NCBI GenBank assembly: GCA_015233785.1
Contig: JADFWT010000001.1
Span: forward strand, 27,752-91,751
Direction: 5' to 3'
DNA from: Magnetococcales bacterium
GTDB taxonomy: Bacteria; Pseudomonadota; Magnetococcia; Magnetococcales; JADFWT01
DNA: 64,000 nt
Each line of letters begins with the position of its first letter. Position 1 is the first letter of the stretch. Shown here in pieces: positions 1 through 28,469 of the stretch. Both the position numbers and the translations under genes were made by a program. The notes beneath the pieces are model-generated. The model made no database searches. It was not told where the DNA came from and saw only the letters and a list, made by a program, of their open reading frames with translations.

Positions 1-1634
1 GTCGACGCTGCGGGCTTCCAACTCCCCTGGCGGGTAGGCACCGTGGGGGATTTCGTCACGCGGGCTGGATCTGGAGCCGGTGGCAAGCTCTTCCACGAAA
101 CCGGCGGGCCGGGAGGCTGTTTAGGCATTGGTGCCACGCCGGGAACCGGAGAGATGGGGCCCGTCGTGGCCGTGGTGAGATCGGAAACCCCTTGAGGTGT
201 GGCCGCCATGGGCAGCGGTTGCCCCTTCTGCTGATCCAACGGCACAAAAATCGGCTGATTTTGGAAGCCCAGATAGGGCGCATAGGCCCGTGCATCCGGC
301 GCAACCCCACCGCTGTACTTGGGATGGTTCTGACGCATCAACACCTTAAAGACCGGATCGGCCAGGGAGAGACGCCCTTTGGCCTTCAGCAGTTGATACT
401 GGGCCAGAAGAATCCGATAACGCCCGTTGACCAACGCCTCCTGGGCGGTGAAGAGCTGGTCCTGCGCCCCCAATAGATCAATGGAGCTGCGGGTGCCGAC
501 TTGAAACTCACGATTCACCCCCTGCATCGCCTCACGGGCCGCCCGCTCAGAATAGGCCAGGGCGCTTTGGGCCGCCATGGCGCTTTGCAGATCCAACACC
601 GCCTGCTGCACCTCCCGCACCACCTGTTTGCGCAGCCGCTCCACGGTAGAGCGCTTCTCATCCCGCCCCCAAACCGCTTGCCGGACTTTTGACGCTGTAC
701 GGCCTCCTTGGTAAAGAGGTACCGACAACGAAAGCCCTACAGTGGCCGCATCACTGGGACTGGTGGAGCTGGAGGCGGTCCAGGTGCGACCAGCACTGGA
801 GCTGAGCGAGAGGGTCGGTAGATGACCCGCCTTCTGCACATCCACATTGGAGATAGCGCTCTCCAGACGCAGTTGCGCCGCATGCAGATCCGGGCGCTTT
901 AACCCCTTCTCAGGGGGCGACAGCATCACCTGTTGAATCAACCCCTTCGGTAGCGGCGGCAAGCTCAGATGAAGCGGCGGCGGGGCGCCCACCAGCTCCA
1001 GAAAGGCCGCCTCATGGATACGCACACTGTTTTCAGCATGGATCAGGGCGGCCCGTGTGGAGGCGAGTCGTGCTTCCGCCTGACGCATATCGGTTTGGGT
1101 CAACTCCCCCACTGTAAAACGGGTGCGGGTGGCGGCGGCGTGCTGCTCGGTAACCTGTAGATTTTTTCGCGCCCAATGGGCCATCTCACGGCTTTTCAGT
1201 AGATTATTAGTCTGCTGGGCCACTTGAAAAAAGACCGACTGAATGGCACTCATCAAATCTTGTTCCGCCGCCGTTGGCAACAGGTGAGAGGCGCTGAGTT
1301 TCTCGTAAACACCCATATCAAACAGCGTGTTGGAAAGTGACATCTTCACAGCTGTGGGTTGAGCGTCGCTATCTCCCCCGTCCCACTTGGAAGCCGTATA
1401 GCTGGCAGTAGAGTCCAGCGTGACGGTGGGCAGTAACCCGGCACGGGTCTGAATAATCCCCTCTTCGGCCCCTTTATAGCGTGCCCATGACTCACGCACC
1501 TGCTCATTATGGTTGAGAGCCATGTGCAACGCGCTAAAAAAACCCTGGTGAGGGCCGCTCAAGGCGGGTGTCGGCCACAAAAACAGCATGGCCAATAGAC
1601 ACCAAAAACGACGCAACCATTGTGGACTCATCAT
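1..1634 (-). CDS. TolC-family outer-membrane efflux / type I secretion protein (C-terminal end runs off the window)
   Basis: Manual minus-strand translation from ATGATG at 1634 stays open to position 1. It is absent from the ORF track because no stop lies in the window. The N-terminus is signal-like (MMSPQWLRRFWCLLAMLFLWPTPALS). Typical outer-membrane-efflux repeats follow (ALHMALNHNEQVRESWARYKGAEEGIIQTRAGLLPTVTLDSTASY ... GTRSSIDLLGAQDQLFTAQEALVNGRYRILLAQYQLLKAKGRL). The gene is divergent from an ABC/HlyD pair. Confidence 0.8.
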   Translation of the reverse strand, partial: MMSPQWLRRFWCLLAMLFLWPTPALSGPHQGFFSALHMALNHNEQVRESWARYKGAEEGIIQTRAGLLPTVTLDSTASYTASKWDGGDSDAQPTAVKMSLSNTLFDMGVYEKLSASHLLPTAAEQDLMSAIQSVFFQVAQQTNNLLKSREMAHWARKNLQVTEQHAAATRTRFTVGELTQTDMRQAEARLASTRAALIHAENSVRIHEAAFLELVGAPPPLHLSLPPLPKGLIQQVMLSPPEKGLKRPDLHAAQLRLESAISNVDVQKAGHLPTLSLSSSAGRTWTASSSTSPSDAATVGLSLSVPLYQGGRTASKVRQAVWGRDEKRSTVERLRKQVVREVQQAVLDLQSAMAAQSALAYSERAAREAMQGVNREFQVGTRSSIDLLGAQDQLFTAQEALVNGRYRILLAQYQLLKAKGRLSLADPVFKVLMRQNHPKYSGGVAPDARAYAPYLGFQNQPIFVPLDQQKGQPLPMAATPQGVSDLTTATTGPISPVPGVAPMPKQPPGPPVSWKSLPPAPDPARVTKSPTVPTRQGSWKPAAS

Positions 1635-2079: not shown

Positions 2080-4503
2080 ATGCAATCGGGTCTCAAATGT
2101 TTGGCGCTGGTGGGTCGCCACCACGGCCTTGAGATTGGTGTCGAACGGCTTCGCCATGACTACCGCGTGGGGGAGTCCGACGAACCGGACCAGACGCTGA
2201 TGACACGCATGGCCAGTGAGCATGGCCTGAAGGCGCGTCTTGTGACGTTTACCTGGCCAAAGATCCAGACCTTGGGCAAGGCCTTTCCGGTGGTGGCCCC
2301 GCTCAACAACGGCCACTATGTGATTCTTACCGGCTTCAAGAGCGCCCCTGCCGACGGTCAGGGGGAACCCACCGTCATGGTGCTGAATCCCATGCATCCC
2401 GACCAGGGCGTACAGCAGGTGGGGCAGCACGCGTTCAGTAAGCTCTGGAGTGGTGCGCTTCTGCTTTTGAAGCGGGCCTATGAACTGACCGATCTGGAGC
2501 AGCCCTTCTCCAGCTCCTGGGTGCTGGGGGCCTATCTGCGCCAAAAGGGGCTGATGGCCATGCTGGTACTCATCGCCTTTGTGCTGAATCTGTTTGCAGT
2601 GGTTCCGGCGGTGTTTATGATCCTGGTGCTGGATAAGGTGGTCAACTATCAGGCCACCGACACCCTGTACGTGATCTCCATTGGCGTCATTATCGCCTAT
2701 ATTTTCAATGCCATACTTGGGTACCTGCGGGATTACACCATCCTGTTCACCACCAGCCGCCTGGAGGCGCGGCTCAATGTGGATGCCTTTAACCGCATGA
2801 TGAATCTCCCTCTGGAGTTTTTTCAAAAACGGGGCCTGAGCGGCGTCATCAAAACCATGCAGCAGACCTCTACCCTGCGGCAGGTGATCAGTGGTCGCTT
2901 TATCGGGGCTGCCCTGGACTCCACGGCACTGTTGATATTTGTACCGATTCTCTACTTTTACAGTCCGCTGCTATCGTTGATTGTCATCGGCTTTTCAGCG
3001 TTGATCTCCCTGAATGTAATTCTCACCGCCCGGATGCAGAAGAGCCGCTTGCGCCAAGCTATTGAGGCCGATAACCGCAAACAGTCCATCATGATGAACT
3101 CGGTGAGCGGCATCGAAACCATCAAGTCCCTGGCCATTGAACCGGAGCAAAAAAGAAGCTGGGAAGAGGCGGTATTTCAACACATCAGCGCCAACTTTCA
3201 ACTGGGCAAGATCAACGCCCTCTCCAGCCAGATCGGTTCGGCGCTCCAGTCGCTGATGACCGTGGCCGTGATCGTGGTGGGCGTTAACCTGGTCTTTGCC
3301 GGAGAGCTGAGCGCCGGCGTTATTATCGGCATCTCCATGCTGGCGGGTCGGGTCACCGGGCCGCTGGTGCAGTTGGTGACGCTGGAGACCGACCTGGAGA
3401 AGACCAACACCGCCATCCAATCACTGGGCTCCATCCTAAACACCAAAGGAGAGACCGGTCAGGGTCGGCTGACGGTGGAGTTTCTCGGCGGCGTACAGTT
3501 TCGCAACGTCACCCTGGCCTACCCGGATGGCACCATCGCTCTGGACAACCTCAGCTTCACTCTGAAACCGCGCCAGCACGTGGCCATTGTCGGGCGACAA
3601 GGGGCCGGAAAAACCAGCATCGCCCGCCTGCTGCAAAAGATGCTTCAAGTGCAGTCCGGCTCGGTCAATATTGATGCCCAGGATGTGCGCACCATGGATC
3701 CGAACAAGCTGCGCTACAACGTGGCCATGGTGAATGAAAGCACCATTTTGTTTGATGAAACCATCCGGGAGAACATCATCAAGCCTTTCCCGGAGGCGGA
3801 CATGGCCCGCGTAGAGTGGGCCGCCAAAACGGTGGGATTGCATGATGATGTGCTGGCCATGCCGCTCTGTTATGAGACGGTTCTAGTGGATGGCGGGGCC
3901 AATCTGCCGGAGGTGCAACGTAAAAAAATCGCCTTGGCCCGCGCCCTGATTCGCAACCCGAAAATTCTCATTCTGGATGAAATTTTCTCACGACTGGATG
4001 TGGATGGCGGTCTGGCGTTGAAGGCACGCCTTGAGAAGATCGGCAGTGGGCGCACATTGATTCTGCTCTCGGCCCACGTAGCACCCATTCTTAATACGCC
4101 GTTGATCATGGTGATGGAGAAGGGGCGCATCACCGAGTGGGGCAACCATGGGCAGTTGATGCAGCGTGGGCGACTCTACGCCGATCTCTACCATAAGGAG
4201 AGTATGCTCTGGGGTGGCATGCCAGCCACACAACCGGCCCAAAAACAGCGCAACAGGACTCAGCAACCGGCCCAGCCGCCACAGCAGGCCACAGCTCAAC
4301 CCCCTTCTGCCCCAAGCCGGAAGCGTGCGGCCCAACTTCAAACCGCAGAGGGCAACACCCAAGAGAAGAAGACCCAAGAGAAAGTGACCCAACAGAATCG
4401 ACTACAACAGGCCCTGAAGCATCTCCAGACCAAGCAGACGCCCAGTCAGGCCAGCCCGCCGCCGCCTCCAGGACGCCAGGAGCTCCAGCATGGCGACGCC
4501 TGA
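2080..4503 (+). CDS. Type I secretion ABC exporter (short C39-like N-terminal domain, 6-TM domain, NBD, Gln/Pro-rich tail)
   Basis: 807-aa ORF with an in-frame TGA at 2041-2043 upstream. The N-terminus resembles a C39 peptidase-like domain (QSGLKCLALVGRHHGLE ... NGHYVILTGF). Hydrophobic TM segments follow. NBD motifs are Walker A GRQGAGKTS, signature-like LPEVQRKKIALARAL, Walker B ILILDE and an H-loop LLSAH. The stop overlaps the next gene by 14 nt. Confidence 0.85.
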   Translation: MQSGLKCLALVGRHHGLEIGVERLRHDYRVGESDEPDQTLMTRMASEHGLKARLVTFTWPKIQTLGKAFPVVAPLNNGHYVILTGFKSAPADGQGEPTVMVLNPMHPDQGVQQVGQHAFSKLWSGALLLLKRAYELTDLEQPFSSSWVLGAYLRQKGLMAMLVLIAFVLNLFAVVPAVFMILVLDKVVNYQATDTLYVISIGVIIAYIFNAILGYLRDYTILFTTSRLEARLNVDAFNRMMNLPLEFFQKRGLSGVIKTMQQTSTLRQVISGRFIGAALDSTALLIFVPILYFYSPLLSLIVIGFSALISLNVILTARMQKSRLRQAIEADNRKQSIMMNSVSGIETIKSLAIEPEQKRSWEEAVFQHISANFQLGKINALSSQIGSALQSLMTVAVIVVGVNLVFAGELSAGVIIGISMLAGRVTGPLVQLVTLETDLEKTNTAIQSLGSILNTKGETGQGRLTVEFLGGVQFRNVTLAYPDGTIALDNLSFTLKPRQHVAIVGRQGAGKTSIARLLQKMLQVQSGSVNIDAQDVRTMDPNKLRYNVAMVNESTILFDETIRENIIKPFPEADMARVEWAAKTVGLHDDVLAMPLCYETVLVDGGANLPEVQRKKIALARALIRNPKILILDEIFSRLDVDGGLALKARLEKIGSGRTLILLSAHVAPILNTPLIMVMEKGRITEWGNHGQLMQRGRLYADLYHKESMLWGGMPATQPAQKQRNRTQQPAQPPQQATAQPPSAPSRKRAAQLQTAEGNTQEKKTQEKVTQQNRLQQALKHLQTKQTPSQASPPPPPGRQELQHGDA

Positions 4504-6373
4504 GACCAGACCACCTCAGACCCAAGAAGCTCAGGCCCGGCAGGCTCAGGCGTCAGCCCCCATCGTTGCCCAGCGACGATCAGCTCCCAATGCCGCCGGA
4601 CAGCCCTCACCACCCCCCCACCGAGAACATACGCTGGCCCCCGGTCAGTTTGTCTTCGAGGAGGGGGAGATCGGCGATTATGCCTATGTGCTGGTCTCCG
4701 GCTCGGTGGAGATCTGCAAGCTGGGCGGCAGCGAATACATTACCCTGAAAAAGCTGGAGCCGGGGGCGCTGTTTGGCGAAATGGCGCTTCTGGACAAGAC
4801 ACCACGCAGCGCATCGGCCCGCGTTACCACGGCCTCGGTGGTGCGCGAGATTGACGAGCAGGCTCTTAAATCTCACATCCGCCAATCCCCTGCGGTGGCT
4901 ATGGACATGATGCACCGTCTGGCCAGCTATGTTCGGGACTCCAACAAGAGCCTTGGCGGGTCACTCTTTAACGGCCGCAATGGAGATCAAAGCGCCCCCC
5001 TACCGCCCCCTTCCGACCTGGAAGAGAACAAACGGCACAAGAGCCAGGCTGAAAGAGAGCTTGAAGATCTGCTATTGGAGTTTCAATCCCCACGTGAGGC
5101 GCTGGAGAGACGACGCTACCCCATGGCACTGATCTACACCTTTGGGGCCATTCTCTTCATGATTCTCAGCTTTACCCTCTGGGCGTCGTTGTCGGTGATT
5201 GATACCACTGTCTCGGCCCGTGGACGGCTCACCACGACCGTACCCACCATTCCGGTACAGGCCACCGATCACGCCATGGTCAAGGAGATTCTGGTCCAAG
5301 AAGGGGTGCGGGTGGCCAAAGGGGAGCCGATGGTGATTCTGGACGAGACTTTTGCCGTGGCCGATCTGGCTCAGGCAGAGGTCGGCTTCCGGCAACTCAC
5401 CGCAAAAATCCAACGCCTCAGCGCCGAGATGAACCGTGAAAATTTGCAGAGCGCCGCCAACATCGACAGTGAGATTGAGCGCAAGGTGTTTCGCAATCGC
5501 TTGCAGGAGTATCACGCCCGCATTGCCGCCTTTGATCTTGATCTGGTCAATCTGGAGCAGCAGCTGACCACCAGCGAAAACAATGCCCGCCTTAACTGGG
5601 AGCAGCTCTCCATTCAGGCACAAATTGCCCAGGCGCGGCAGCAGCTCTTTGATGAGAAAGTGGGCTCTCAGCTGAATCTACTTCAGGCCCGCAACAGCTA
5701 TCTCAGCAGCCTGAAGAGTTACCACGCCCATCTGGATACCGCCCACCAACTCACCAGCCGGATGGAGAGCATCCGCGCCAATCGTATGGCCTTTATCAGC
5801 GACTGGTTCTCTCAGATTGGCCAGCAGCTCTCCGAATCGCTCAAACAGCGGGATGCTCAAAAAGAGGGACTGGTTAAACTGAATCGGCGCATGAAGAATA
5901 TTCGCATTCTGGCCCCTGCCGATGGGGTGGTGATGGCGCTGGAGAAGACTCTGTTTGTGGGGGCTATCGTCAGCAAGGGCAACACCATTCTCTCCTTGGT
6001 GCCGAGTAATGTCCCTCTTACAGCCGAGCTGGATATCGATCCCCGTGATATCGGCAATCTGATGATGGGGGCGAGTGTCTCCATCAAGCTGGACGCGTTG
6101 CCCTTCCAGAAGCATGGCGAAATGCGCGGCGAGGTCACCTTTATCTCCGAAGACACCGTGGCGGAATCCACCGATGGCACGCCGGGCACCTTCTATCGGG
6201 CCAGAGCCACCATCATAGAGAATAAACTGGAGAAGCTGCCGCCTAACTTCCGACTGGTGCCGGGCATGCTTTTTACCGGGGATATTCTGGCCGGAAGAAG
6301 GCGCTTGATCACCTACTTTATCTATCCGGTGGTGCGCACCATAAACACCAGCTTCACCGAGCCGGGGCAGTGA
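4490..6373 (+). CDS. HlyD-family type I secretion membrane fusion protein with N-terminal cyclic-nucleotide-binding domain
   Basis: 627-aa ORF. Residues ~50-165 look like a CAP/Crp-type cNMP-binding domain (FVFEEGEIGDYAYVLVSGSVEI ... FGEMALLDKTPRSASARV). A single TM follows (MALIYTFGAILFMILSFTLWASL). The remainder is a typical HlyD region (VSARGRLTT ... coiled coil ... lipoyl/beta-barrel part ending YFIYPV). Confidence 0.85.
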   Translation: MATPETRPPQTQEAQARQAQASAPIVAQRRSAPNAAGQPSPPPHREHTLAPGQFVFEEGEIGDYAYVLVSGSVEICKLGGSEYITLKKLEPGALFGEMALLDKTPRSASARVTTASVVREIDEQALKSHIRQSPAVAMDMMHRLASYVRDSNKSLGGSLFNGRNGDQSAPLPPPSDLEENKRHKSQAERELEDLLLEFQSPREALERRRYPMALIYTFGAILFMILSFTLWASLSVIDTTVSARGRLTTTVPTIPVQATDHAMVKEILVQEGVRVAKGEPMVILDETFAVADLAQAEVGFRQLTAKIQRLSAEMNRENLQSAANIDSEIERKVFRNRLQEYHARIAAFDLDLVNLEQQLTTSENNARLNWEQLSIQAQIAQARQQLFDEKVGSQLNLLQARNSYLSSLKSYHAHLDTAHQLTSRMESIRANRMAFISDWFSQIGQQLSESLKQRDAQKEGLVKLNRRMKNIRILAPADGVVMALEKTLFVGAIVSKGNTILSLVPSNVPLTAELDIDPRDIGNLMMGASVSIKLDALPFQKHGEMRGEVTFISEDTVAESTDGTPGTFYRARATIIENKLEKLPPNFRLVPGMLFTGDILAGRRRLITYFIYPVVRTINTSFTEPGQ

Positions 6374-6494: not shown

Positions 6495-6523
6495 AAAAAA
6501 AGGCCTCACCCGAAGGCAAGACC
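6495..6523 (-). terminator. Rho-independent terminator downstream of the acidic-protein gene
   Basis: The minus-strand RNA reads GGUCUUGCC-UUCG-GGUGAGGCC. That is a 9-bp stem including G-U pairs with a UUCG tetraloop, followed by UUUUUUU. It sits 77 nt after the stop at 6600. Confidence 0.6.
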
Positions 6524-6599
6524 CTTTGATTTGAAGAGACGCCAGAATCCCCCCGCAGGCAAGACACCAGAAAGATATCGGCCATAGGCGAGACGTCTA

Positions 6600-7595
6600 T
6601 TATACCACTTCGGCATCCGCCCCCATATCTGGAGGCACACCAGCTCCTGCCATATCGGCCACATCCGGCCCGGTTGCTCCGCCGGGAGACTCCGGCATCG
6701 GCGCGGTATCGGTGGCGGTCTGATCCATGGCGTTGGTCATGGCATCGTCTCCCATATCGGGCATGGGCGGGGGAACCGTTCCAGTACCAGCTGAATCGGG
6801 GGTCTCTCCCATGGGTACATCGGTCGGGGGCGGAGCGCTGTCCGTCGTACTGGCCGTATCGGCACCGTAGCTGGGAATCATTCCAGTACCGGTTCCCGCC
6901 GTGTCAGCTGGCATGTAGCCATCTTCACCCGCTCCTCCCTCTGCTCCCGGTACCGGCGGGACATAGCCGCCGTCAGTGGGATCGTTGGGTTCGCCGCCGT
7001 AGGGACCGGTAGGGGGCGCGCCACCAGCGCCATCCTGTTGAGGAAGATAGTCGTCATTGGGATCGTCGCCAAACGTGCCCGTGGGAGGCGTCATGCCACC
7101 CGGTCCATAACCACCCCCTCCTCCACCATCCCCATCTTGTTGGGGAGGATAATCACCGTTTGGGCCATCACCAAAAGTGCCCGGAGGCGGCACGGTTCCG
7201 CCATAGGGCTCGGCGGCTTCACCTTCTTCATGGTGGCCGTGGTGGCCGTGGTCACCACCATCGTCGTCGTGGTCATCATCATCATCATCATCGTGGGGAG
7301 GAGGCTGATGACCATAACTGGCTGGATCCACATAGCCATCCACCATACCGGCCGAGTCCGCATAGCCAGTCGTACCGGCCGCTGGATCCACATAATCGGC
7401 CTCCATATCGGTAGCGGAGACGGGACTATTTGCAGCCTCACCGTAACTGTTGGGATCTACATAACCGGTGGGTCCTGTATCCGCCGCATCGGTGGGCATC
7501 GGGGCCATATTGCTATCCGTGCCTGGAACCGGGGCAGCTGCGGGATTGGTGGTTGCGGTGTCGGTGGCTGTCGCTGCCGTCGTGTCTTCTGCCAT
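6600..7595 (-). CDS. Hyper-acidic low-complexity (Asp/Gly/Pro/Thr/Tyr-rich) protein with poly-Asp/His tract; function unknown
   Basis: 331-aa ORF, the longest frame in this low-complexity region. A GGGAGG Shine-Dalgarno lies 8 nt upstream of the ATG. Internal repeats include GYVDP x3 and GTFGD(G/D)PN(G/D)DY(P/L)PQQDG x2. There is a DDDDDDDHDDDGGDHGHHGHH tract. Confidence 0.7.
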   Translation of the reverse strand: MAEDTTAATATDTATTNPAAAPVPGTDSNMAPMPTDAADTGPTGYVDPNSYGEAANSPVSATDMEADYVDPAAGTTGYADSAGMVDGYVDPASYGHQPPPHDDDDDDDHDDDGGDHGHHGHHEEGEAAEPYGGTVPPPGTFGDGPNGDYPPQQDGDGGGGGGYGPGGMTPPTGTFGDDPNDDYLPQQDGAGGAPPTGPYGGEPNDPTDGGYVPPVPGAEGGAGEDGYMPADTAGTGTGMIPSYGADTASTTDSAPPPTDVPMGETPDSAGTGTVPPPMPDMGDDAMTNAMDQTATDTAPMPESPGGATGPDVADMAGAGVPPDMGADAEVV

Positions 7596-7920
7596 GAGAA
7601 AGGCCTCCCACAGATCGAATAGGATAGAGTATGTTTATGAAATCAGATTCTTTCGTTGGCCGACACTCTTCTTGGGGAGTCCGTTCCAGCGGGTGCTGCG
7701 GTCATTCGTGAACGAATAAATGAGTGATACAGTTCGCATCACACCCCATTCACCAAACAATTGGACCAAATTGAGATTAATTAATCAATACAAATCGTTC
7801 ATCCCACAAGATTAAATACCCGATCCATATAACAGACAGATCGTTTTCCAACATCGGATATATCAATAACCGATAAGTGGTCAAACAACCTTCATCAGAT
7901 GATGGGGAATCATCTCTCGG

Positions 7921-8010: not shown

Positions 8011-8478
8011 TCAGCCGGTGGCGACCTGAGGTAGATCCTCCGGGGTCTCCAACGGATACGCCTGACGTTGCCACTCCACCACACCGCCAATCAGTTCGCA
8101 CGCCTGCAAGCCCCCATCCAGAAAGTGATCCAACGCTATGGCCGTACGCGGCCCTGAACGACAGATCAGTACGTAGCGCACCTCCGGGTCAAAGAGCGAA
8201 GGATCGAACTTGGCCAAAAAATCCTTGGAAAAAGCGCCGGTATCCTGCCGGTTGGCCAGATTATGCTCGCAAGGAAAACAGAGACTGGATGGAATCAACC
8301 CCTCTTGCTGCTCCACCTCGGTGCGCAGGTCCAGCGGCGTCATCTGGGTGAGACCGGCATCCATTAGCTGCTTGAGCTGCTTGACGGAGATCATCTCGTT
8401 GAAAAGAACCTTCTCCATGATCTCTTCAGGATTCTCTTGGGGCTGATTATCCATCATCAATACGCCATCTTTTTTCAA
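8011..8478 (-). CDS. Rhodanese-domain sulfurtransferase-like protein
   Basis: 155-aa ORF. It has a rhodanese active-site loop CRSGPR (VLICRSGPRTAIALDHF) and a C-terminal GGVVEWQRQAYP. The start codon is uncertain because several in-frame Met codons exist. Confidence 0.75.
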   Translation of the reverse strand: MKKDGVLMMDNQPQENPEEIMEKVLFNEMISVKQLKQLMDAGLTQMTPLDLRTEVEQQEGLIPSSLCFPCEHNLANRQDTGAFSKDFLAKFDPSLFDPEVRYVLICRSGPRTAIALDHFLDGGLQACELIGGVVEWQRQAYPLETPEDLPQVATG

Positions 8479-8526
8479 GTTGGGTTAAATCAACATCCAC
8501 CTGCAAACCGTGAAAATACGGATAGG

Positions 8527-8949
8527 CTAATCAACGCCCTTCTCCTGGAAAAAGGCCGAATACCTGACATCGTGATCGTTGATGTGCTCCAGTAACCACT
8601 TGGCGAGAAACGCCTTCACTTCGGTAAAACGACCCGCCTGCCGAGACTCAATCTGCTCCCGAAGCCGGTGCAGAGTATCAATCAGATCTGCATGCTGTTT
8701 AAGGTGCTCTTCCAACTGAGGATAATCGTACGCACGCATCAGCTCCTCTTCCGCCTTGAAGTGAATCTGCGTGTATTTGTCGAACCGCTTAAAGATGGAG
8801 TCCAGTTGGTCCCACTCATCCTCCTCCGCTTCACGCTCGGCAAAACGGTCAGAGAGCCTGTTGAACTCCTGGACATAGAATAGAAGCCGTTGATGATCTT
8901 TATTAAAACGCTCAACACCAACATCGGCAACAAACAGATTCGACATCAC
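8527..8949 (-). CDS. Bacteriohemerythrin (hemerythrin-like metal-binding protein)
   Basis: 140-aa ORF with the spaced His/Glu/Asp ligand pattern of hemerythrins (DHQRLL ... HFKAEEELM ... YPQLEEHLKQH ... WLLEHINDHDVRY). Confidence 0.85.
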   Translation of the reverse strand: MMSNLFVADVGVERFNKDHQRLLFYVQEFNRLSDRFAEREAEEDEWDQLDSIFKRFDKYTQIHFKAEEELMRAYDYPQLEEHLKQHADLIDTLHRLREQIESRQAGRFTEVKAFLAKWLLEHINDHDVRYSAFFQEKGVD

Positions 8950-17743: not shown

Positions 17744-19642
17744 TCAGGTGAGAAACTCACGCCAGAGCGGCTCCAGAGAGTCCCGATAGTTCTCCCAGGC
17801 CATCACCGAACTGCTGTAGATGGGCTTACGAACCTGACTGACGCTGGCTGTGGTCACCACCCGCTTGTTCTTATGAAACGCCATGCAGCGCGCATCCCAC
17901 CCCAGGTTGCAGTGCTCCAGAAGCAGGCGGGTCTCCCGCTCCTGATCCGCCACCAGCGCCTCGTAAGAGAGATCATAAATTCTGCCGGGCGCCACCCGAT
18001 GCCAATGCGCCATCAACGACTGATAGGCCCGGTAGTAACGCCCCAACTCGGAGAGGTGGTAGGCGTAGGGATGCGGCTCGCTGAACAGGGTCTTGAAGAT
18101 GGAAAAACAGGTGCCCATGGGATGGCGCACGCAGTGGATAATCTTCGCCTTGGGCAGCGCCGAGAGAATCCATCCTATATGCATATAATTATTGGGCATC
18201 TTATCAACAATATAGGGCGACTCAGGCGCACAGGCATGCAGTGCCTCCAGATAGCGCTGGCCCATGGTGCGAATCTGCTCGCCACTCAAGGCCCGGCTAT
18301 CCTGCCGCCAGCTCACCGGCGGACCAACTCGCCCTCCTGAGTTATGAGAAATCTCCCGCCAGAGCTTCTGCACCTCCAGCGGCATCTGTACCCGCTCTCC
18401 GGCGCCATACACCTGCGGGTGGCTGGAGAGTATCTGCTCAGCCAACGTGGTGCCGGAACGAGGCATGCCGAGAATAAAAATCGGTGCTTTATCCTCAACA
18501 CCGAACCTCTGCCAGCGAGCCAGGAAATCGGCATCCATCATCTCTTGGAGAAATCCAAAGCGCGCCTCGTCCTCCGTGACAAAGTAGCGATGACGCGTCC
18601 GCTCCATGCGATTGCCCGCCGCCAGATGATCAAAGGCGCGACGATGATCCCCAAGATCCTCATGCAGCTTGCCTAACGCAAAGGCTAGATTGGTGCGCTC
18701 AAAACGGCTGATGCCGCGCTTGGTGTAGAGCCGCTGCATCGCCTCGGTATAATGATTGGTCTCCCGCATCCGCCCGCAGGAGACCATGTGCCGATAGGCG
18801 ATGGCGCAAGAGGGATCGATGGTGACCGCCTGCTCAAAAGCTGTCCGTGCCTCCTCCAGACGCCCCAACCCTTTGAGTGTCACCCCAAGATTGTTGTAGG
18901 TGGCGGCTTGTTGCGGGTTCAGCTCCAGTGCCTGCCGATAGCACACCTCCGCCTCTTCCAGTCGCTCCAGCATCCGTAATGTATTGCCGAGATTACCCAG
19001 GGCATCCGGGTAGTTGGGACGTATCTTCAACGCTTGACGAAAATGGTCGTGGGCCTCCTGGAAGCGGTTTTTGGAGACCAAAAGATTGCCCAAATTATTA
19101 TGGGCAGCAGCCAGAGTGGGCTTGTGATGAATGGCGCGCTCAAAACTGCGCATCGCCTCTTGAATCTGACCGCGATCCTTATGGGTCAGCCCGAGATTGT
19201 TGTGGGCCTCCGCCAGATCGGGCTTAAGAACAATCGCCCGATGCAAGGCCACCCCCGCCGCCTCCAAACGCCCCTGAAGACGCAACAGATGGCCCAAATT
19301 GTTATAGGCCATGGGGTTGTTGGGCTGTAGCGCCAACGCCTTGCGGTAGCAGGCCATGGCACCGCTTCTATCTCCCAAATCAAAACGCGTGATGCCAAGA
19401 TTATTCAGCGCCGGAGCCATCTTCGGATTGGCGGCCAGGGCATATTCAATCAACCGCCTGGCATCCTGCATCCGGCCCTGCTGCCGAGCAATGAGACCCT
19501 GTCTGTGCAGCGCCTCGGCATAGTGGGCGTCCGCCGGTGAGATGGCCTCAAATCGGGCCAGCGCTTCATCCAATGCCCCCTGCTGATGCAGCGCCATTCC
19601 CTGCTGAAAAATCGCCTGAAAGTTGGACGCCTGGGCCACCAT
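17744..19642 (-). CDS. TPR repeat protein fused to a sulfotransferase domain (TPST/RaxST-like PAPS-binding motifs)
   Basis: The ORF is open to 19714. I prefer ATG 19642 (MVAQASNF), which has GGGGGAG about 7 nt upstream. N-terminal TPRs are followed by FILGMPRSGTTLAEQIL (5'-phosphosulfate-binding loop) and IIHCVRHPMGTCFS (3'-phosphate motif region). Confidence 0.85.
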   Translation of the reverse strand: MVAQASNFQAIFQQGMALHQQGALDEALARFEAISPADAHYAEALHRQGLIARQQGRMQDARRLIEYALAANPKMAPALNNLGITRFDLGDRSGAMACYRKALALQPNNPMAYNNLGHLLRLQGRLEAAGVALHRAIVLKPDLAEAHNNLGLTHKDRGQIQEAMRSFERAIHHKPTLAAAHNNLGNLLVSKNRFQEAHDHFRQALKIRPNYPDALGNLGNTLRMLERLEEAEVCYRQALELNPQQAATYNNLGVTLKGLGRLEEARTAFEQAVTIDPSCAIAYRHMVSCGRMRETNHYTEAMQRLYTKRGISRFERTNLAFALGKLHEDLGDHRRAFDHLAAGNRMERTRHRYFVTEDEARFGFLQEMMDADFLARWQRFGVEDKAPIFILGMPRSGTTLAEQILSSHPQVYGAGERVQMPLEVQKLWREISHNSGGRVGPPVSWRQDSRALSGEQIRTMGQRYLEALHACAPESPYIVDKMPNNYMHIGWILSALPKAKIIHCVRHPMGTCFSIFKTLFSEPHPYAYHLSELGRYYRAYQSLMAHWHRVAPGRIYDLSYEALVADQERETRLLLEHCNLGWDARCMAFHKNKRVVTTASVSQVRKPIYSSSVMAWENYRDSLEPLWREFLT

Positions 19643-19717
19643 GACACGCTCCCCCTGCTGAAGTGATCGAAAAAGAGATATTAACACGCATGACGACGCG
19701 GTTGAATGCGACAATTA

Positions 19718-22087
19718 TCAATTTGTCGTCAACGCCTTAAAAACCTTCTCCGCACCAGGTGGAATGCTGGTGAGATGCAGCTGCAACGTCCCCGCCTCTT
19801 CATCCTGGGCCATCACCTTGCCGTAGAGCTGATCGGAGATAGAGAGACCATCGGCATCAAACAGCTCCAGTTGCAAATTGGTCAGACGCCGCGCCTTGAG
19901 ACGGGTTGCAATCTCCAAGAGCTTACCGTCCATGGCGCTGATACGACCGGCATGACGCGCCTTATCACTCCGTTTGCCCTCCAGAACCGCCATCATCACC
20001 TCCGGGCCATTCTCCAGAAACTTTAACTCAGGAGGCCTCGGCTCCGGCAACTGAATGCCGTAAAGGCCTCGAATACCGCCAATCAGGTAGATGGGAACCG
20101 GCTCGGGAACCCCCTTTAAGGAGACCCGCCATTCATCATCGATGCGGGCCAGATTGTTGCACCCCTTCAGGGTGGTCTCAGAGATCAACACCTGCCCACC
20201 AATGGTTTGCGACTCCACCCGTGCCGCCAGATTGATGGTCGCCCCCACGACGCCGTACTTGGCCCGCAGATCCGAACCGATATTTCCAGCTACCACCGAT
20301 CCGCTGTTGATGCCAATCCCCATGGCCGCTTCGGGAAAGCCACGAGCACCGAACTTGGCATTCACCTCCGGCATCGCTTTCTGCATCTCCAGGGCGCAGG
20401 CCACCGCCCGCTGGGGATCATCCTCATGGGTAACCGGCGCGCCAAACAGCGCCAGAATGCCATCGCCAAGGAACTCAATGATGGTGCCGCTATATTTCAG
20501 GATGATCTCGGTCATGCGCTCCAGATAGATGTTGAGCATGGAGATCACCTCTTCCGGCGGCAAGCGCTCGCTAATGGCGGTGAAGCCCCGCAGGTCGGAC
20601 ATCATCACCGTCACCTCCTTCTGCTCACCCCCCAGACGCAACCCCTCGGGTCGATCCAGAATCGATGCCACCACCTCATCGGACATATAGCGCCCAAAGG
20701 TCTTGCGAATAAACAGGTTGGCCCGATTCAGCCCCTCATTGAGGTGCTTCTGCTCAAACAACATATGCTCCAACTCTTTGTTGAGCTGACCCTTCTCCTC
20801 CGTGGCCTGCTCGGCACTCTCCAAAGCCTTCTGCAACTCCTCTTGCGTGTGTTTGCGCTCCACCGCCACCTGCAACACAAACGCCAGTTGGTCGATCACC
20901 TCACGCGCCTCATCGGTGATCTGTATCGCCCCTTCCAGATGGAGAAAAAAGAGCGCAAAAACAGTATCACGCCCCGGTGAGAAGAGCGGAATCAACAGTC
21001 GTGCGCCATCCAGATCTTCGGGAAACTGCTCCTCATAGCCATGCTGGTGGTGCACCTTCCAACTACTGCGATCCTGAGAGAAGTAACGCATGAACTGGAG
21101 GGGGAGCATCACCACTTCGCCCGCATAGCCGCTCTCGGCACTCAGACGAAGCCCCTGACCATTGTCGCGAAGGGTGTAGAACTCCATGCCGGCGGCGGGA
21201 AGCATTCGGCGAGTAATCTCCAGAAGCGCTTCCACAATCTGGTCAAACTCCCGGTGGGCAACCATCGCCTCTTTAATATCCCGCAACATATCGTTGAGCG
21301 TGGTCAGCCGTCGCACATCGGTACTATCTGCCGCTTTCAGATAGAGCCCGCAATCCAATTTTTTCAGGCGGCTGAAAATCTCGGGGACCAGGTGACCGGG
21401 AATAATGGAGCCGTGCTGGGGGGCTATCATGCCGAGCTCCAGCTTCTCCAGCTTCAAAAGCCCATTGAGCAGCACCTCTCGGCTAGGCATGTAGTGCTCG
21501 TGAAATGGGCGCATCGCCTCAAAATAGTCGGCATCCCGAGCCACCAATGTCCAGTCGTCGGTAAAGCCGCCAAACAGATCGCTGGAGAATAGAATGCGAC
21601 TCTCCTCATCATAGGTGCAGAACGCCCCAGGAAAGTGCAAATAGGGGGTGAAGACAAATTTCAGCCGACGACTGCCAAGATCAAGATGCCAGCCGTGATC
21701 CTGCTCGATACACTTTAATGGCATTTTGAGATCATAATGCTTAAGCAGTACGTTGGCCCGCCAATGGCTGAGAAGATAGGCATCATCCCGCGTCACCATG
21801 GCGTCAATGGTGGGCATGATGGCTGTGATGTCGGGATCCTGATGCTGGCAGAGAAAATATCGAATATTACTGAATTCGGTAATCTTCTTGATCTTTTCCA
21901 GGGTGTGATCAAAGGTGAGCTTGGAGCCGGGATCAAACAGAACCGATTGATCGCCGTTCTCAATCAGATAGGCGTGGCACTGAAAAGGATCCCCAGGAAG
22001 ATAGTGGCCAACCCACCAGGTGCGATCTGCAATCTCAATGGGATGATCGGCGGAGGCGTATTGAATGTGATCTAAAGGGTCGCTCAT
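19718..22087 (-). CDS. Class III nucleotidyl cyclase with N-terminal metallo-beta-lactamase/flavodiiron-like domain and GAF-like linker (cyclase 1)
   Basis: The ORF is open to 22171, but I prefer ATG 22087 (MSDPLDHIQY). The N-terminus reads WWVGHYL...CHAYLIENGDQSVLFDPG...LCQHQDPDITA...HFPGAF...SSDLFGG...APQHGSII. The catalytic domain reads VTVMMSDLRGFT...IIEFLGDGILALFGAP...KYGVVGATINLAARVES. Confidence 0.85.
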   Translation of the reverse strand: MSDPLDHIQYASADHPIEIADRTWWVGHYLPGDPFQCHAYLIENGDQSVLFDPGSKLTFDHTLEKIKKITEFSNIRYFLCQHQDPDITAIMPTIDAMVTRDDAYLLSHWRANVLLKHYDLKMPLKCIEQDHGWHLDLGSRRLKFVFTPYLHFPGAFCTYDEESRILFSSDLFGGFTDDWTLVARDADYFEAMRPFHEHYMPSREVLLNGLLKLEKLELGMIAPQHGSIIPGHLVPEIFSRLKKLDCGLYLKAADSTDVRRLTTLNDMLRDIKEAMVAHREFDQIVEALLEITRRMLPAAGMEFYTLRDNGQGLRLSAESGYAGEVVMLPLQFMRYFSQDRSSWKVHHQHGYEEQFPEDLDGARLLIPLFSPGRDTVFALFFLHLEGAIQITDEAREVIDQLAFVLQVAVERKHTQEELQKALESAEQATEEKGQLNKELEHMLFEQKHLNEGLNRANLFIRKTFGRYMSDEVVASILDRPEGLRLGGEQKEVTVMMSDLRGFTAISERLPPEEVISMLNIYLERMTEIILKYSGTIIEFLGDGILALFGAPVTHEDDPQRAVACALEMQKAMPEVNAKFGARGFPEAAMGIGINSGSVVAGNIGSDLRAKYGVVGATINLAARVESQTIGGQVLISETTLKGCNNLARIDDEWRVSLKGVPEPVPIYLIGGIRGLYGIQLPEPRPPELKFLENGPEVMMAVLEGKRSDKARHAGRISAMDGKLLEIATRLKARRLTNLQLELFDADGLSISDQLYGKVMAQDEEAGTLQLHLTSIPPGAEKVFKALTTN

Positions 22088-22424
22088 GACTAACGAACAG
22101 CTCCTGATTGCACAGTAAAGCTCTACCGGCACGACCACACTTTGCGCCGACGGACTTGCCTCCCCCCACAATCTGGCTGCATCAATTCATACCATGAAGC
22201 GAAGCCTTCCCCTCTTTCGGCCCCAGCATAACTCCTGCATGATTATGAACCATTTATTATTATTGTCGGATCATACAGAACATGAGATAAAACGACCACT
22301 TTTTTGTGACGTACCTTCCGGTTTCATCCATTGCAGACCCTGATGGTTCAGGAGAGACTACCCTCTACTTTCAGTTATGGAGCGACCTCCTGACAACCAC
22401 CCTTCAAGTCATTGATCCTCTACC

Positions 22425-24762: not shown

Positions 24763-26988
24763 ATGCCCACATCGCCCCACTTGCCTACCCCGGAAGAAGC
24801 ACTCCAACGCGCCATCGAACACCATGAAGCGGGGCATCTCACGGATGCAGAAGCGCTCTATCGCCAACTCCTGACCACGCACCCCCAACACGCCATGGCC
24901 TGGCATCGACTGGGACTGCTGGCGCTTCAGGTGGGACAGCCCCAGCAAGCCTCCCAGTTTATCGGCGAGTCCCTGCGCCTGGAGCCCAACGATGTCGCCG
25001 CCCTCTGCAACATGGGCCATGCCCTGGCCAGCTTCGGTGAATTCGACACCGCCATCACCCATCTACAACAGGCCACAGCCCTGCAACCAAACATGCCCGA
25101 GGCCCACCTTAATCTGGGTGAATTCCTACGTCTACGAGGAGCCGTTGGAGATTTGACGGCGTCGGAAGCCAGTTGCAGAGAGGCCATCCGCCTGCGTCCC
25201 AGCATGCCGGAGGCACACAATAATCTTGGCACGCTCCTCAAAGAGAGAAAACGTTACGGTGAGGCGGTCGAGGCCTTTGAAAAGGCGCTCCGCTTGGCCC
25301 CGAAATATGCCGACGCCCACACCAATCTCGGCACGACCTATGAGGCAATGGGACGTCTGGACGAGGCGATTGCCAGCCACAAGAAGGCCATTGACATCGC
25401 CCCTGAAAGCGGTCTGTATCACAGCAATCTAAGCCATGCTCTGATGACCAAAGGAGATCTGAAAGCCGCCAGAGAAAGCGGCGAGATGGCGGTTAAGCTA
25501 CACCCCGATTTGGCAAAGATTCACGCCAACCTTGGGCAGGCCCATATTCGTCTCGGCAGGCCCGATCAAGCGCTCATCTGCTTTCAAAAGGCTACCGAGC
25601 TTGAACCCAATCACGCCACTTATCTCAACCAGATCGGTGCCAATCTGGCCGATATGGGGCGCTGCACGGAAGCACTGGAGCCCTTAAGACGTGCATCCGC
25701 CATGGATCCCGGCAACCCGGAACTACATAATGCGCTGATCTTCTTTCTGGATATGACCCCTGGCGTCCAAACCGGTGATCATCAGCAAGAGCGACAGCGA
25801 TGGGTGGAACGCTTCCTGGCGGACACGGTTCCGTTTGGAAAGCACCATAACGATCCAGACCCACAACGCCCGCTTCGGGTGGGGTATCTCTCCTCCGATT
25901 TTCACAGCCACTCGGCAGCCTCCACTTTCGGAGCCTGTCTGCTGCACTACGATCGAACGCAATATGAGCTGTTCTGCTACGCCAACAATCAGCAGGGAGT
26001 CGGTAAGTGCGAAGATGAGGTGACCAATCGATTCCGTCAGTCGGTGGATCACTGGCGAGAAATCTCCCATCTGGACGATGAGGAAGTGACCCAAATGATT
26101 CGCTCGGATTGCATTGATATTCTGGTGGACCTATCCGGCCACACCACCGGCAACCGGCTTCGGGTCATGGCCCGACGTCCGGCCCCGATTCAATGCACCG
26201 GCTGGGGCTATAATCTCGGCACCGGGCTCTCCGCCATCGACTATCTGGTGATCGACCCGATCATGCTCCCCCCGGAAGAGCGCCCCCTTTTTGCCGAACA
26301 AGCGATGGATCTCCCCTGCGGTATCCATCTGCAACCGTTAACCGATTGGCCTGAACCAGCTCCGCTCCCGGCCCTGACCCATGGTACCATCACCTTCGGC
26401 TCGTTTAACCGCACCTGCAAAATCAACCCGGAGTTGCTGGCCTTATGGGGCCGACTGCTGGTCGCTGTTCCCGAATCGCGCATGCTCTTCAAAATCCCCA
26501 AACTGGAGACCGACTTCTACCTCAACTACTATCGTGAGGTGCTGGCTTCCCACGGCGTGGAGCCGCAACGGGTGGAGGTGCTGGGATCTACTTCACAATA
26601 TGAGCATCTGGCAGCCTTCAACCAGGTGGATATCGCCCTGGATCCCATCCCTCAAGGAGGCGGCATCACCTCGCTGGAAGCACTGCGTATGGGCGTGCCG
26701 GTCCTGACGTTGAAATACCCCACCATCACCGGGCGTCTGACCGCTTCGTTCTGCCATGCTTTGGATTTGGAGGATTGGGTCGCAGAGCGCCCGGAGGCCT
26801 GGATCGCCATCGCCCAAAAAAAAGCCCAAGATCTCGATGCTCTGGCTGCGCTTCGACGGGGACTTAGAGTGCGCTTTGACGACTCCATACTCGGCAATCA
26901 TGCCCTCTATATGCACCACCTGGAGCGACTCTATCGACAGATGTGGAAACGCTGGTCGGCTGGCCAATCAGAGCGTGCCCAGCTTTAA
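24763..26988 (+). CDS. TPR-GT41 (OGT-like) glycosyltransferase, paralog 6 (subfamily B)
   Basis: The ORF is open from GTG 24709. ATG 24763 (MPTSPHLPTPEEALQRAIEHHEAG) fits paralog N-termini better. Motifs: RVGYLSSDFHSHSAASTFGACLL and DIALDPIPQGGGITSLEALRMGVPVLTL. Confidence 0.8.
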   Translation: MPTSPHLPTPEEALQRAIEHHEAGHLTDAEALYRQLLTTHPQHAMAWHRLGLLALQVGQPQQASQFIGESLRLEPNDVAALCNMGHALASFGEFDTAITHLQQATALQPNMPEAHLNLGEFLRLRGAVGDLTASEASCREAIRLRPSMPEAHNNLGTLLKERKRYGEAVEAFEKALRLAPKYADAHTNLGTTYEAMGRLDEAIASHKKAIDIAPESGLYHSNLSHALMTKGDLKAARESGEMAVKLHPDLAKIHANLGQAHIRLGRPDQALICFQKATELEPNHATYLNQIGANLADMGRCTEALEPLRRASAMDPGNPELHNALIFFLDMTPGVQTGDHQQERQRWVERFLADTVPFGKHHNDPDPQRPLRVGYLSSDFHSHSAASTFGACLLHYDRTQYELFCYANNQQGVGKCEDEVTNRFRQSVDHWREISHLDDEEVTQMIRSDCIDILVDLSGHTTGNRLRVMARRPAPIQCTGWGYNLGTGLSAIDYLVIDPIMLPPEERPLFAEQAMDLPCGIHLQPLTDWPEPAPLPALTHGTITFGSFNRTCKINPELLALWGRLLVAVPESRMLFKIPKLETDFYLNYYREVLASHGVEPQRVEVLGSTSQYEHLAAFNQVDIALDPIPQGGGITSLEALRMGVPVLTLKYPTITGRLTASFCHALDLEDWVAERPEAWIAIAQKKAQDLDALAALRRGLRVRFDDSILGNHALYMHHLERLYRQMWKRWSAGQSERAQL

Positions 26989-28469
26989 ACGTCGTCCCCA
27001 AATATTCTATGCCGTTTGGTATTCTGACGCTCATACTGCTGGATATCAATACGCTTGGACATGTAATCCTGCCACACTTCACGACGACGACGTGCAATGT
27101 AACCCCTCTCCACGCCCTCCAAACGAATATTCTCCTTGGACCAGCGAATATCAAATCCGTCAAAATCGTCGTGAAACAGCTTCTCCTCCAGACATTGACG
27201 GTAGAGCGCCGTTCCAGGCAGAGGGTTGACAATGGAGAATGAGAGACGATCAAACCCATACTGGGTCGCCCGCTGAAAAGTGTGATCTATCTGCTCTTTG
27301 GTCTCACCAGGAAAACCCACCATAAAGACCCCCTCGGTAATCAATCCTGCCTTCTGGCACTTTTCCACAATCTTCTCAATACGATCCAAATTGACCCGCT
27401 TGGCCACCATGCGGTCCTGCACTTCCGCATTGGCACTCTCTACGGCAAGAAAAATCTTATTGAATCCCGCCTCCGCCATCAGTTCGATCATCTCATCGTC
27501 AAATGCGTTGACCTCCCCGCCACTGGGTACCTGGTAACGGAGGTCAGGCGTCTCCCGAATCACCCGCCGGAGCAACGTTTTGACCCGTTTGCGATGGATA
27601 AAAAAATTGTCGTCCCAAAAATGGATCTCGTCGGGATTGTAACGCGCCCGATTGTGGTGAATCTCGGCCATCACGTCGTCGATTTCACGCAGCCGATAGT
27701 GTCGCCGACTGGTCATGGGAGCCGTGCAGAAACCGCAGTTATGGGGACAGCCGCGAGAGGTGAGCATAATCATGAAGCGCTTCTCTCCTTCATGCACCTC
27801 ATAGTCGGCCAACCCGGCCTGCCAATACCGCTGAAGATCGACCTTGTCCCAGGCAGGCCAGGGTAGATCCTCCACCAAAGGGGGCTGGTAGTCCTCCACC
27901 TGATGAAAGCCTGCTGTGGTTTTGTAGATAAGCTGTCCGACCCTATCCAGAGGATGCCCGCCGTTGATCGCCCTGATCAGCCTTGGAAGCGCCAAATCAG
28001 ACTCGCCAAAGAGCAGATAGTCCACATGGGGATCAAGCACCATCTCCGGCATTCCAGAGGGGTGCTGCCCCCCCATCACCAGATGGGCTTCCGGGCATGT
28101 CTGTTTGGCCATCTTTGCCAATTTCAACACATCCTGAGCCCTGTTTGAAAAGGGACAACTGATCCCTATCATGTCAGGCTTATAGGCTTCCAGTTTGCGG
28201 CGGATGGCCGCATCGTCCAGGCCATAATAGATGGTACGACCCACCACACGCTCCTGCTGATACCCCTCAATCAAGGCATCAAGAATCTCCACCTGCACAT
28301 CAAGCAACTGAAGCTGCGCAGCCAGATAGGCTAATCCAAGAGGTGGAACAGCCAGCTTACGCTCCCTGGAACCCTCTTTGGTGAGGGTGATCTTGCCCGC
28401 TGGAGCGATAAGAAGCACCCGGCGGATCGGAGAACGTAAAGTAGGATAGAGTGCATGTGGAGTAGTCAT
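26985..28469 (-). CDS. B12-binding-domain radical SAM enzyme (class B radical SAM)
   Basis: 494-aa ORF. The N-terminus is a Rossmann-like B12-binding region (RVLLIAP...DMIGISCPFSN...HLVMGGQHPS). The radical SAM cluster motif is SRGCPHNCGFCTAP (CX3CX2C). Its stop overlaps the convergent paralog 6 stop by 4 nt. Confidence 0.85.
   Translation of the reverse strand: MTTPHALYPTLRSPIRRVLLIAPAGKITLTKEGSRERKLAVPPLGLAYLAAQLQLLDVQVEILDALIEGYQQERVVGRTIYYGLDDAAIRRKLEAYKPDMIGISCPFSNRAQDVLKLAKMAKQTCPEAHLVMGGQHPSGMPEMVLDPHVDYLLFGESDLALPRLIRAINGGHPLDRVGQLIYKTTAGFHQVEDYQPPLVEDLPWPAWDKVDLQRYWQAGLADYEVHEGEKRFMIMLTSRGCPHNCGFCTAPMTSRRHYRLREIDDVMAEIHHNRARYNPDEIHFWDDNFFIHRKRVKTLLRRVIRETPDLRYQVPSGGEVNAFDDEMIELMAEAGFNKIFLAVESANAEVQDRMVAKRVNLDRIEKIVEKCQKAGLITEGVFMVGFPGETKEQIDHTFQRATQYGFDRLSFSIVNPLPGTALYRQCLEEKLFHDDFDGFDIRWSKENIRLEGVERGYIARRRREVWQDYMSKRIDIQQYERQNTKRHRIFGDDV

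Follow-up and report, generated by a model that had tools for sequence, protein, structure and literature searches.

We find that a gene for a hyper-acidic, disordered protein in a Magnetococcales bacterium belongs, by comparison of loci, to a previously unannotated family that adjoins a type I secretion system (T1SS) with a domain for sensing cyclic nucleotide monophosphates (cNMPs), in magnetotactic cocci and in marine Alphaproteobacteria, and that its product is probably the cognate cargo of that T1SS. The window (the whole stretch of DNA analysed) comprises 64,000 nucleotides of contig JADFWT010000001.1 (assembly GCA_015233785.1, positions 27,752 to 91,751 of the forward strand). The gene, referred to here as the target, lies on the minus strand of the window at 6600..7595; it starts with ATG, and its 331-amino-acid product begins MAEDTT and ends DAEVV before the stop codon. 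We favour the cargo reading because adjacency to the T1SS genes is kept from locus to locus, because a conserved C terminus is carried on a hypervariable, unfolded body, because the transporter's C39-like domain (CLD) is degenerate, because the protein has no leader and because an outer-membrane factor (OMF) is encoded alongside. A first-pass annotation, made from the sequence of the window alone, had already proposed a type I substrate with a C-terminal signal, and this proposal is now well supported by synteny at 16 of 18 loci, by conservation of the C-terminal ~75 residues and by the non-catalytic CLD.

The composition of the target is extreme. It contains no Lys, Arg, Cys or Trp, and its 49 Asp and 13 Glu give a net charge of −62; the other residues include 59 Gly, 50 Pro, 42 Ala, 36 Thr, 16 Met, 15 Val, 14 Tyr, 11 Ser and 8 His, with only one Ile, one Leu and two Phe. 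An AlphaFold2 single-sequence model has a mean pLDDT of 45 and is devoid of secondary structure. The maximum Kyte–Doolittle score over 15 residues is 0.53, and the protein lacks a Sec signal because both a hydrophobic segment and a basic N terminus are absent. In these respects (the coordinates and length of the gene, the four missing residues, the count of 14 Tyr and the lack of an N-terminal signal peptide), the first-pass annotation had read the sequence correctly.

The evidence for a family comes from synteny. The annotation had suggested looking for homologs and for their linkage to T1SS genes. In 16 of the 18 informative loci, a hyper-acidic open reading frame (ORF) with 0–2 Lys and Arg residues adjoins genes for an adaptor of the HlyD family with a cNMP-binding domain and an ATP-binding cassette (ABC) transporter with a CLD. 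A locus was counted as informative if it was orthologous at cNMP–HlyD and had enough flanking sequence, and the window is one of the positives. The others are L002/L003, L004–L006, L007 and L008 from Magnetococcales metagenome-assembled genomes (MAGs), L009 (ORF at 4441-5679) from the cultured Terasakiella sp. A23, L010 from a marine ‘Rickettsiales’ MAG, L011 from a Rhodospirillales-like contig, L013, L015, L016, L020, L022, L027 and L032 from metagenome contigs, and L093. The HlyD proteins of these loci are roughly 30–57% identical to that of the window. The T1SS that they share consists of an HlyB-type ABC transporter whose C39-like domain is non-catalytic, the cNMP-fused HlyD and, usually, a TolC-like gene. 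The acidic gene mostly lies upstream on the same strand; it is upstream and divergent at L007, and downstream and convergent in the window, with adjacency kept throughout. As a control, ~314 kb of loci that match the cNMP domain only contained no such acidic ORF.

Family ORFs are 184–540 amino acids long where complete, with net charges of −25 to −102 and no Pfam match. They are rich in Pro, Gly and Asp/Glu and usually in Met, which makes up 7–25% of most members and reaches 24.9% in L022 (L022:3205-4542, 111 of 445 residues) and 21.9% in L027 (L027:3105-4736, 118 of 540 residues); the last two proteins have no Lys and no Arg. One fragment, L011c, has no Met at all. L016 and L020 have 12 and 22 Cys, respectively, such that freedom from Cys is confined to the closer subfamily. 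A GGWG motif occurs in many members and is absent from the target, which, because it is also poor in Met, we place as a divergent member. At L004, L009, L010 and L093 the N-terminal ~100 residues form an Ala-rich module in which A[FY]x[DE]A[LI]xxGA[ST]P[EQ]EA[FL] units, probably helical hairpins, recur; the target does not have this module. The loci L002 and L003, from two MAGs, are otherwise identical, yet their acidic proteins (6755-7525 and 6560-7525, respectively) have 256 and 321 residues; the 65-residue repeat difference reflects either copy-number variation or assembly collapse in GQPPMD repeats. Judged from these sequences, the middle of the family proteins is a fast-evolving repeat region.

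The ends of the proteins behave differently from the middle. The N terminus is conserved as MAE[ED], and conservation is strongest at the C terminus, where ~75 residues (6603..6827, minus strand, in the target) form a family module and a candidate uncleaved T1SS signal. The family module runs from PPP through [MLF]xDxMxxxMD[DE]A and a Pro/Gly-rich stretch to MPPPxD and a terminal [DE][VI][VI], with the most distant members ending in DVG or similar; in the target the corresponding order is VPPP, GDDAMTNAMDQ, a Pro/Gly-rich stretch and VPPDMGADAEVV. The DDAMxxAMD element is the longest segment free of Pro and Gly in the C-terminal region of the target and most members, and in the target, as in roughly half of the members, the hydrophobic moment calculated for a helix is highest there. 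A hidden Markov model (HMM) built from the C termini of five orthologs, with the target excluded, scored 22.3 bits on the C-terminal 120 residues of the target, compared with −12.4 ± 3.5 (maximum 0.0) for 1,000 permutations of the same residues (z ~10); with the null2 correction off, the values were 55.3 and 21.2 ± 4.1. Smith–Waterman comparisons of the target with the five orthologs gave z = 3.2–8.0. As both kinds of score exceed those of the shuffled sequences, the relationship extends beyond shared composition. The acidic residue followed by Val or Ile at the extreme C terminus recalls the terminal motif of substrates of the protease/lipase type such as PrtG and AprA, a likeness that we presume.

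The gene carries its own expression signals. A Shine–Dalgarno sequence, GGGAGG, lies at 7604..7609 (minus strand), with the ATG 8 nt downstream, and a hairpin of 13 pairs followed by a T-run, resembling an intrinsic terminator, occupies 6498..6527 on the same strand as the target, starting 73 nt past its stop codon and lying between the convergent HlyD and target genes. G accounts for 54% of first codon positions. When all six frames of the window were filtered for stop-to-stop segments of at least 60 amino acids with less than 3% Lys plus Arg and more than 12% Asp plus Glu, the target was the sole segment retained. No sigma-70-like promoter was found upstream of the target, and a scan for CRP sites (TGTGA-N6-TCACA, up to two mismatches) gave 18 matches against 24 ± 5 expected, which leaves a CRP operator at the target unsupported. 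The frame could in principle be a chance opening in GC-rich, repetitive DNA: the sequence is of low complexity, shadow ORFs overlap it on the opposite strand, and database searches return no homolog. However, ribosome-binding site, terminator and codon-position bias are all present, a syntenic family with conserved termini spans 16 loci, and the empty searches are explained by databases that lack family members. We therefore regard a spurious ORF as exceedingly improbable, a reading effectively refuted by the comparative data, and the target is a real gene.

The searches in question were extensive. The target had no match in Pfam or NCBIfam (including RTX/HemolysinCabind), no homolog by word-indexed phmmer against 5.8 billion proteins or by exhaustive phmmer against 1.84 billion representatives, and no hit in the PDB or in a tblastn-confirmed pattern scan of GTDB genomes; a profile of six C termini, searched for relatives, also returned nothing, and a scan of genome contigs with HlyD gave one irrelevant Bacteroidetes match only. 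An exact look-up of the target and five verified relatives, some of them gene-called on public contigs, showed that all are absent from the protein collection, and composition-corrected profiles score the divergent full-length target below zero. Because verified relatives are missing from the same databases, these null results are uninformative. We rejected an ‘ORFan’ interpretation on that basis, the relatives having been found by synteny. A literature search for the acidic family and for Lys-free secreted intrinsically disordered proteins found nothing relevant.

The T1SS beside the target is complete in the window. A TolC-like OMF gene (3..1634, minus strand; PF02321 OEP, E = 5.8 × 10−52), which is cut off at the window's left edge, is divergent from the gene for an HlyB-type ABC transporter that has a C39-like domain at its N terminus (2080..4503, plus strand; TIGR01846, E = 3 × 10−140; Peptidase_C39 N-domain). 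This is followed by the gene for the HlyD-family adaptor with an N-terminal cNMP-binding domain (4490..6373, plus strand; TIGR01843, 267 bits against a cut-off of 208.65). The target gene lies 227 bp past this module, convergent with the ABC and HlyD genes and outside their operon. OMF genes are also found at L002, L007, L008 and L010. At the position of the catalytic Cys, the C39-like domain of the window transporter has Ser and those of five orthologs have Ser or Thr, and the catalytic His is not conserved among the six aligned sequences; by this alignment, the domain is a non-catalytic CLD of the HlyB kind. Non-catalytic CLDs accompany uncleaved substrates such as HlyA (PMC8277102), and the degenerate domain therefore fits cargo with an uncleaved C-terminal signal. 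A bacteriocin-like cargo of the peptidase-containing transporter (PCAT), Gly-Gly type was considered and excluded by the absence of both the catalytic Cys and a GG leader; N-terminal conservation extends to MAE[ED] only, and no conserved leader ending in GG, GA or GS was found. The window transporter has a C-terminal extension of ~95 residues (4210-4503), Gln/Pro-rich and mildly basic, which overlaps the start of HlyD. As a docking site for the polyanion this tail was rejected, since it is not conserved (it is shorter in L002 and most orthologs have none).

The adaptor links the system to cyclic-nucleotide signalling. Its cNMP-binding domain (residues 47–132) retains an intact phosphate-binding cassette, FGEMALLDKTPRSASA, and across 27 HlyD homologs the residues of this cassette (FGEMA...PRSA) do not vary. 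The domain is N-terminal to the single transmembrane helix (residues 212–230) and, by HlyD topology, is therefore predicted to be cytoplasmic. From this position on the cytoplasmic end of HlyD we propose that export is licensed by cNMPs, as the sequence suggests. Three class III cyclases are encoded in the window (19718-22171, 28760-30388 and 37075-39195), one of them fused to an ODP diiron domain; at L010 a CHASE2–cyclase and a cNMP protein lie directly past HlyD (L010:8730-11555), and L011 has a CRP-like regulator (L011:3860-4558). A search of the accessible literature found no description of a cNMP-binding domain fused to HlyD.

We infer secretion, cNMP gating, cation binding and an extracellular role for the family, along the following lines. 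The target would be synthesised in the cytoplasm, where, as a polyanion, it would stay unfolded at all times and, having no N-terminal leader, uncleaved. Its C-terminal ~75 residues, with the amphipathic DDAMxxAMD between Pro-rich stretches and an acidic-Val-Val end, would bind an inner-membrane complex of the HlyB-type ABC transporter, with its non-catalytic C39-like domain, and the HlyD adaptor. Export, probably licensed by cAMP or cGMP from the nearby class III cyclases acting through the cNMP domain of the adaptor, would then thread the chain in one step through the TolC-like channel. Outside, the chain, either in solution or attached to the surface, may bind divalent cations as a polyanion, and such binding may act as a ratchet against backsliding, as RTX repeats do in classical substrates. 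In the target ortholog, an Asp/His tract may add a transition-metal site.

Several observations weigh against this picture. Co-expression of the target with the T1SS genes is not guaranteed, given their convergent orientation and the separate terminator of the target; RTX nonapeptides, the usual hallmark of CLD-type substrates, are absent from it; it lacks GGWG and is Met-poor compared with its relatives; L012 and L025 carry the T1SS with no such ORF in the available flank; cation binding is drawn from composition alone, and the His clusters are not family-wide; and secretion of the family members is a prediction from their genes. A protein that is never exported, and that instead regulates or plugs the T1SS from the cytoplasm or forms an acidic intracellular scaffold in the way of the magnetosome protein MamJ, would account for the convergent, separately terminated arrangement beside the T1SS, and magnetosomes are known to involve acidic proteins with repeats. 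A MamC gene is present ~3.5 kb upstream of the T1SS and acidic gene at L002 (3684-4151) and L003 (3489-3956), and at no other family locus. However, the family is found at the same T1SS in MAGs of marine Alphaproteobacteria, on metagenome contigs and in Terasakiella sp. A23, where the flanks retrieved are without magnetosome genes, and no mam genes occur in the window, in which the matches to MamA are generic tetratricopeptide repeats (TPRs). A conserved extreme C terminus on a hypervariable body is also the pattern of a secretion signal plus cargo. On these grounds we judge the unexported alternative very unlikely, and a magnetosome link appears unsupported apart from the MamC gene near L002/L003. 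We continue to regard export as cognate cargo as the probable fate of the target.

What the exported chain might do is suggested by its motifs. The Asp/His tract, HDDDDDDDHDDDGGDHGHHGHHEEGE, occupies residues 101–126 (7218..7295, minus strand) and is a candidate transition-metal or cation site by composition and motif check; the string reported in the first-pass annotation, DDDDDDDHDDDGGDHGHHGHHEEGE, is an exact match to residues 102–126. DNA-level microrepeats underlie the tract at 7231-7252 and 7273-7292. Two copies of a 20-residue repeat, PP.GTFGD.PN.DY.PQQDG (residues 136–155 and 170–189; 7029..7190, minus strand), are separated by a Gly-rich spacer. This repeat was also described correctly, whereas the three copies of GYVDP reported with it are in reality two of GYVDP and one of DYVDP (that is, YVDP three times). 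Canonical GGxGxD nonapeptides had been called absent; there is indeed no RTX array, although a single loose match, GGAGED, occurs at residue 220. Clusters of His are present in L002/L003, L013, L015 and L032 and absent in L007, L008 and L010. Binding of divalent metals by the target is plausible from its sequence, and the extracellular role that we favour, as a reading of composition and motifs, is one in which the polyanion would bind cations and the Asp/His tract of this ortholog would supply a site for transition metals.

A secreted protein of this kind might instead have a redox or antioxidant role, in which the Met residues of the repeats take up oxidants outside the cell or act as ligands of Cu(I). 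The Met content of most members would fit, and the target, which has fewer Met, is the sole member with many Tyr. Rhodanese and hemerythrin genes (8011-8949) lie just upstream of the target, across a 415-bp gap and in the same orientation, and the cyclase fused to the ODP diiron domain lies in the same window; for magnetotactic cocci, which are microaerophilic, and for bacteria of the surface ocean, such a role would be fitting. The argument is nevertheless one of composition: other family loci do not share the hemerythrin and rhodanese genes, the L011c fragment is free of Met, and regularly spaced Met is largely missing from the target. We consider a redox function rather unlikely and retain cation binding as the favoured role.

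A further possibility is that the T1SS substrate is first heavily Tyr-sulfated and O-glycosylated in the cytoplasm by enzymes of the adjoining region, yielding a polymer like a mucin or proteoglycan. Between 9082 and 62629 the window contains an unusually dense set of TPR-fused putative protein-modifying enzymes, namely 15 (TPR-)GT41/OGT-like paralogs and a TPR-fused sulfotransferase (17744..19714, minus strand), which is a candidate modifier by context only. A PDB search with the full sulfotransferase was dominated by TPR matches, and the catalytic domain was therefore searched alone; its best solved relatives are all protein-tyrosine sulfotransferases, with TPST1/2 the nearest (TPST1, E = 3.8 × 10−9). 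The same island holds a B12-binding radical SAM methyltransferase (26985-28469, minus strand), a gene for a GDT1-family Ca2+/Mn2+:H+ antiporter and a response-regulator–GGDEF–EAL gene (32529-33239 and 45382-48075, respectively). TPR fusions suggest protein substrates; the target, with the highest Tyr content of the family (4.2%) and the second-highest Thr plus Ser (14.2%), would offer acceptor residues; L004 and L007 also carry TPR-enzyme genes within a few kilobases of the T1SS; and the RaxX/RaxST/RaxAB system provides a bacterial case of Tyr sulfation followed by type I export.

The residues themselves give less encouragement. The first-pass annotation had placed nearly all Tyr in acidic contexts resembling sulfation sites, but they have on average 1.79 acidic residues within ±5 positions compared with 1.85 for the protein background (permutation P = 0.58), and Asp precedes only 3 of the 14; of the strings quoted in support, DGDYPP is in fact NGDYPP and DDDYLP is NDDYLP. 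The many Thr/Ser-Pro stretches taken for O-glycosylation targets amount to four [ST]P dipeptides. Tyr is not conserved in the family, with 0–2 residues in 14 of 15 relatives and 6 in L010, compared with the 14 of the target. The case for either modification from sequence context is accordingly weak. The suggested fit with the island enzymes holds in part, in that the sulfotransferase is TPST-like, but TPR-enzyme genes are near the T1SS at ~3 sampled loci and lacking nearby at most; the sulfotransferase is 10 kb off and tied to the target by adjacency only, and the TPR-GT41 arrays could equally act on flagellins or other targets. Flagellin glycosyltransferases of the FlmG type are known.

The TPST-like sulfotransferase encoded nearby and the precedent of the Rax system speak for sulfation of the target; even so, sulfation or glycosylation of the target seems doubtful, and the full model of a heavily modified, mucin- or proteoglycan-like polymer is, in our estimate, unlikely. 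Quite unlikely is the combination of a widespread class of Lys/Arg-free polyanions, exported by a cNMP-gated T1SS in Magnetococcales and marine Alphaproteobacteria, with a Tyr/Thr-rich target that is both sulfated and glycosylated by the TPST- and OGT-like enzymes of the 55-kb island. If it were true, the target would be the bacterial counterpart of a sulfated mucin or proteoglycan, exported by a T1SS.

Read as exported cargo, the family has consequences beyond this locus. Type I substrates without RTX repeats are poorly catalogued, and the family illustrates how an entire class of cargo escapes notice: it is easily missed because it has no Pfam or NCBIfam model, is absent from the databases searched, is penalised by profile composition correction and offers no tryptic sites. 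The lack of Lys and Arg means that the target yields no tryptic peptides and would be overlooked by standard proteomics, such that the secretome experiment proposed in the first-pass annotation would return a false negative unless adapted. Coomassie staining relies largely on basic residues, and the target is expected to stain poorly. The family represents a natural, minimal, unfolded T1SS cargo with a compact C-terminal signal, useful for dissecting signal recognition and for engineering secretion tags, and it ties type I secretion to the sensing of cAMP or cGMP through the cNMP domain fused to HlyD. That the family occurs in magnetotactic cocci, in Terasakiella and in marine Alphaproteobacteria that are abundant hints that a polyanion outside the cell matters ecologically, with cation or metal buffering and redox protection among the possible roles.

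Known systems share individual features with this one. In cyanobacteria, the family TIGR03896 (‘cyc_nuc_ocin’) likewise ties a cNMP module to C39-ABC/HlyD export, and the N terminus of the window HlyD matches the model at E = 1.8 × 10−7, with a score well under its cut-off. In the window, by contrast, the cNMP domain is fused onto HlyD itself, and the candidate cargo, instead of being a bacteriocin with a Gly-Gly leader, is a large polyanion. Among the papers searched, PMC4558948 alone names a cNMP domain alongside HlyD, in cyanobacterial clusters. In the RaxX/RaxST/RaxAB system of Xanthomonas, Tyr sulfation in the cytoplasm is followed by type I export (PMC6637879, PMC4646787), and genes for a tyrosine sulfotransferase and for type I export share a neighbourhood, as the TPST-like gene and the T1SS do in the window. 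RaxX differs from the target in being a 60-residue precursor with a leader cleaved by an active peptidase transporter, whereas the target has 331 residues, no leader and a CLD without the catalytic Cys; the window sulfotransferase is 10 kb away, fused to TPRs and absent from most family loci, and the Tyr residues that it would modify are not conserved.

The tandem repeat proteins (TRPs) of Ehrlichia, TRP32, TRP47 and TRP120, which are T1SS effectors of Rickettsiales and thus of Alphaproteobacteria, are acidic, disordered and exported by a T1SS via a C-terminal signal (PMC5895000, PMC10225607). Their likeness to the target is functional and compositional only, as acidic, disordered tandem-repeat T1SS cargo. 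As nucleomodulins, the TRPs act on the hosts of pathogens that are obligately intracellular, whereas the target family occurs in free-living aquatic bacteria. To our knowledge, the Ehrlichia proteins are not free of Lys and Arg, and their T1SS is not fused to a cNMP domain. Outside bacteria, salivary acidic proline-rich proteins (PRPs) and Asp-rich shell proteins are secreted, disordered polyanions rich in Asp, Pro and Gly that bind Ca2+; these eukaryotic acidic PRPs and biomineralisation proteins resemble the target in composition only, are not homologous to it and leave the cell by another route.

The closest functional comparison is with RTX/HlyA-type secretion. The window encodes the same set of parts, namely an ABC transporter with a non-catalytic CLD, an HlyD-family adaptor and a TolC-like OMF, and the target is acidic, free of Cys and without an N-terminal signal, with a conserved extreme C terminus and a chain predicted to be unfolded in the cytoplasm. 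It differs in having neither an array of GGxGxDxUx nonapeptides nor a folded functional domain and in being entirely without Lys and Arg, and the window adaptor has a cNMP-binding domain where HlyD has none. Although it fails the test that defines RTX proteins, the target appears to work in the manner of an RTX/HlyA-type substrate.

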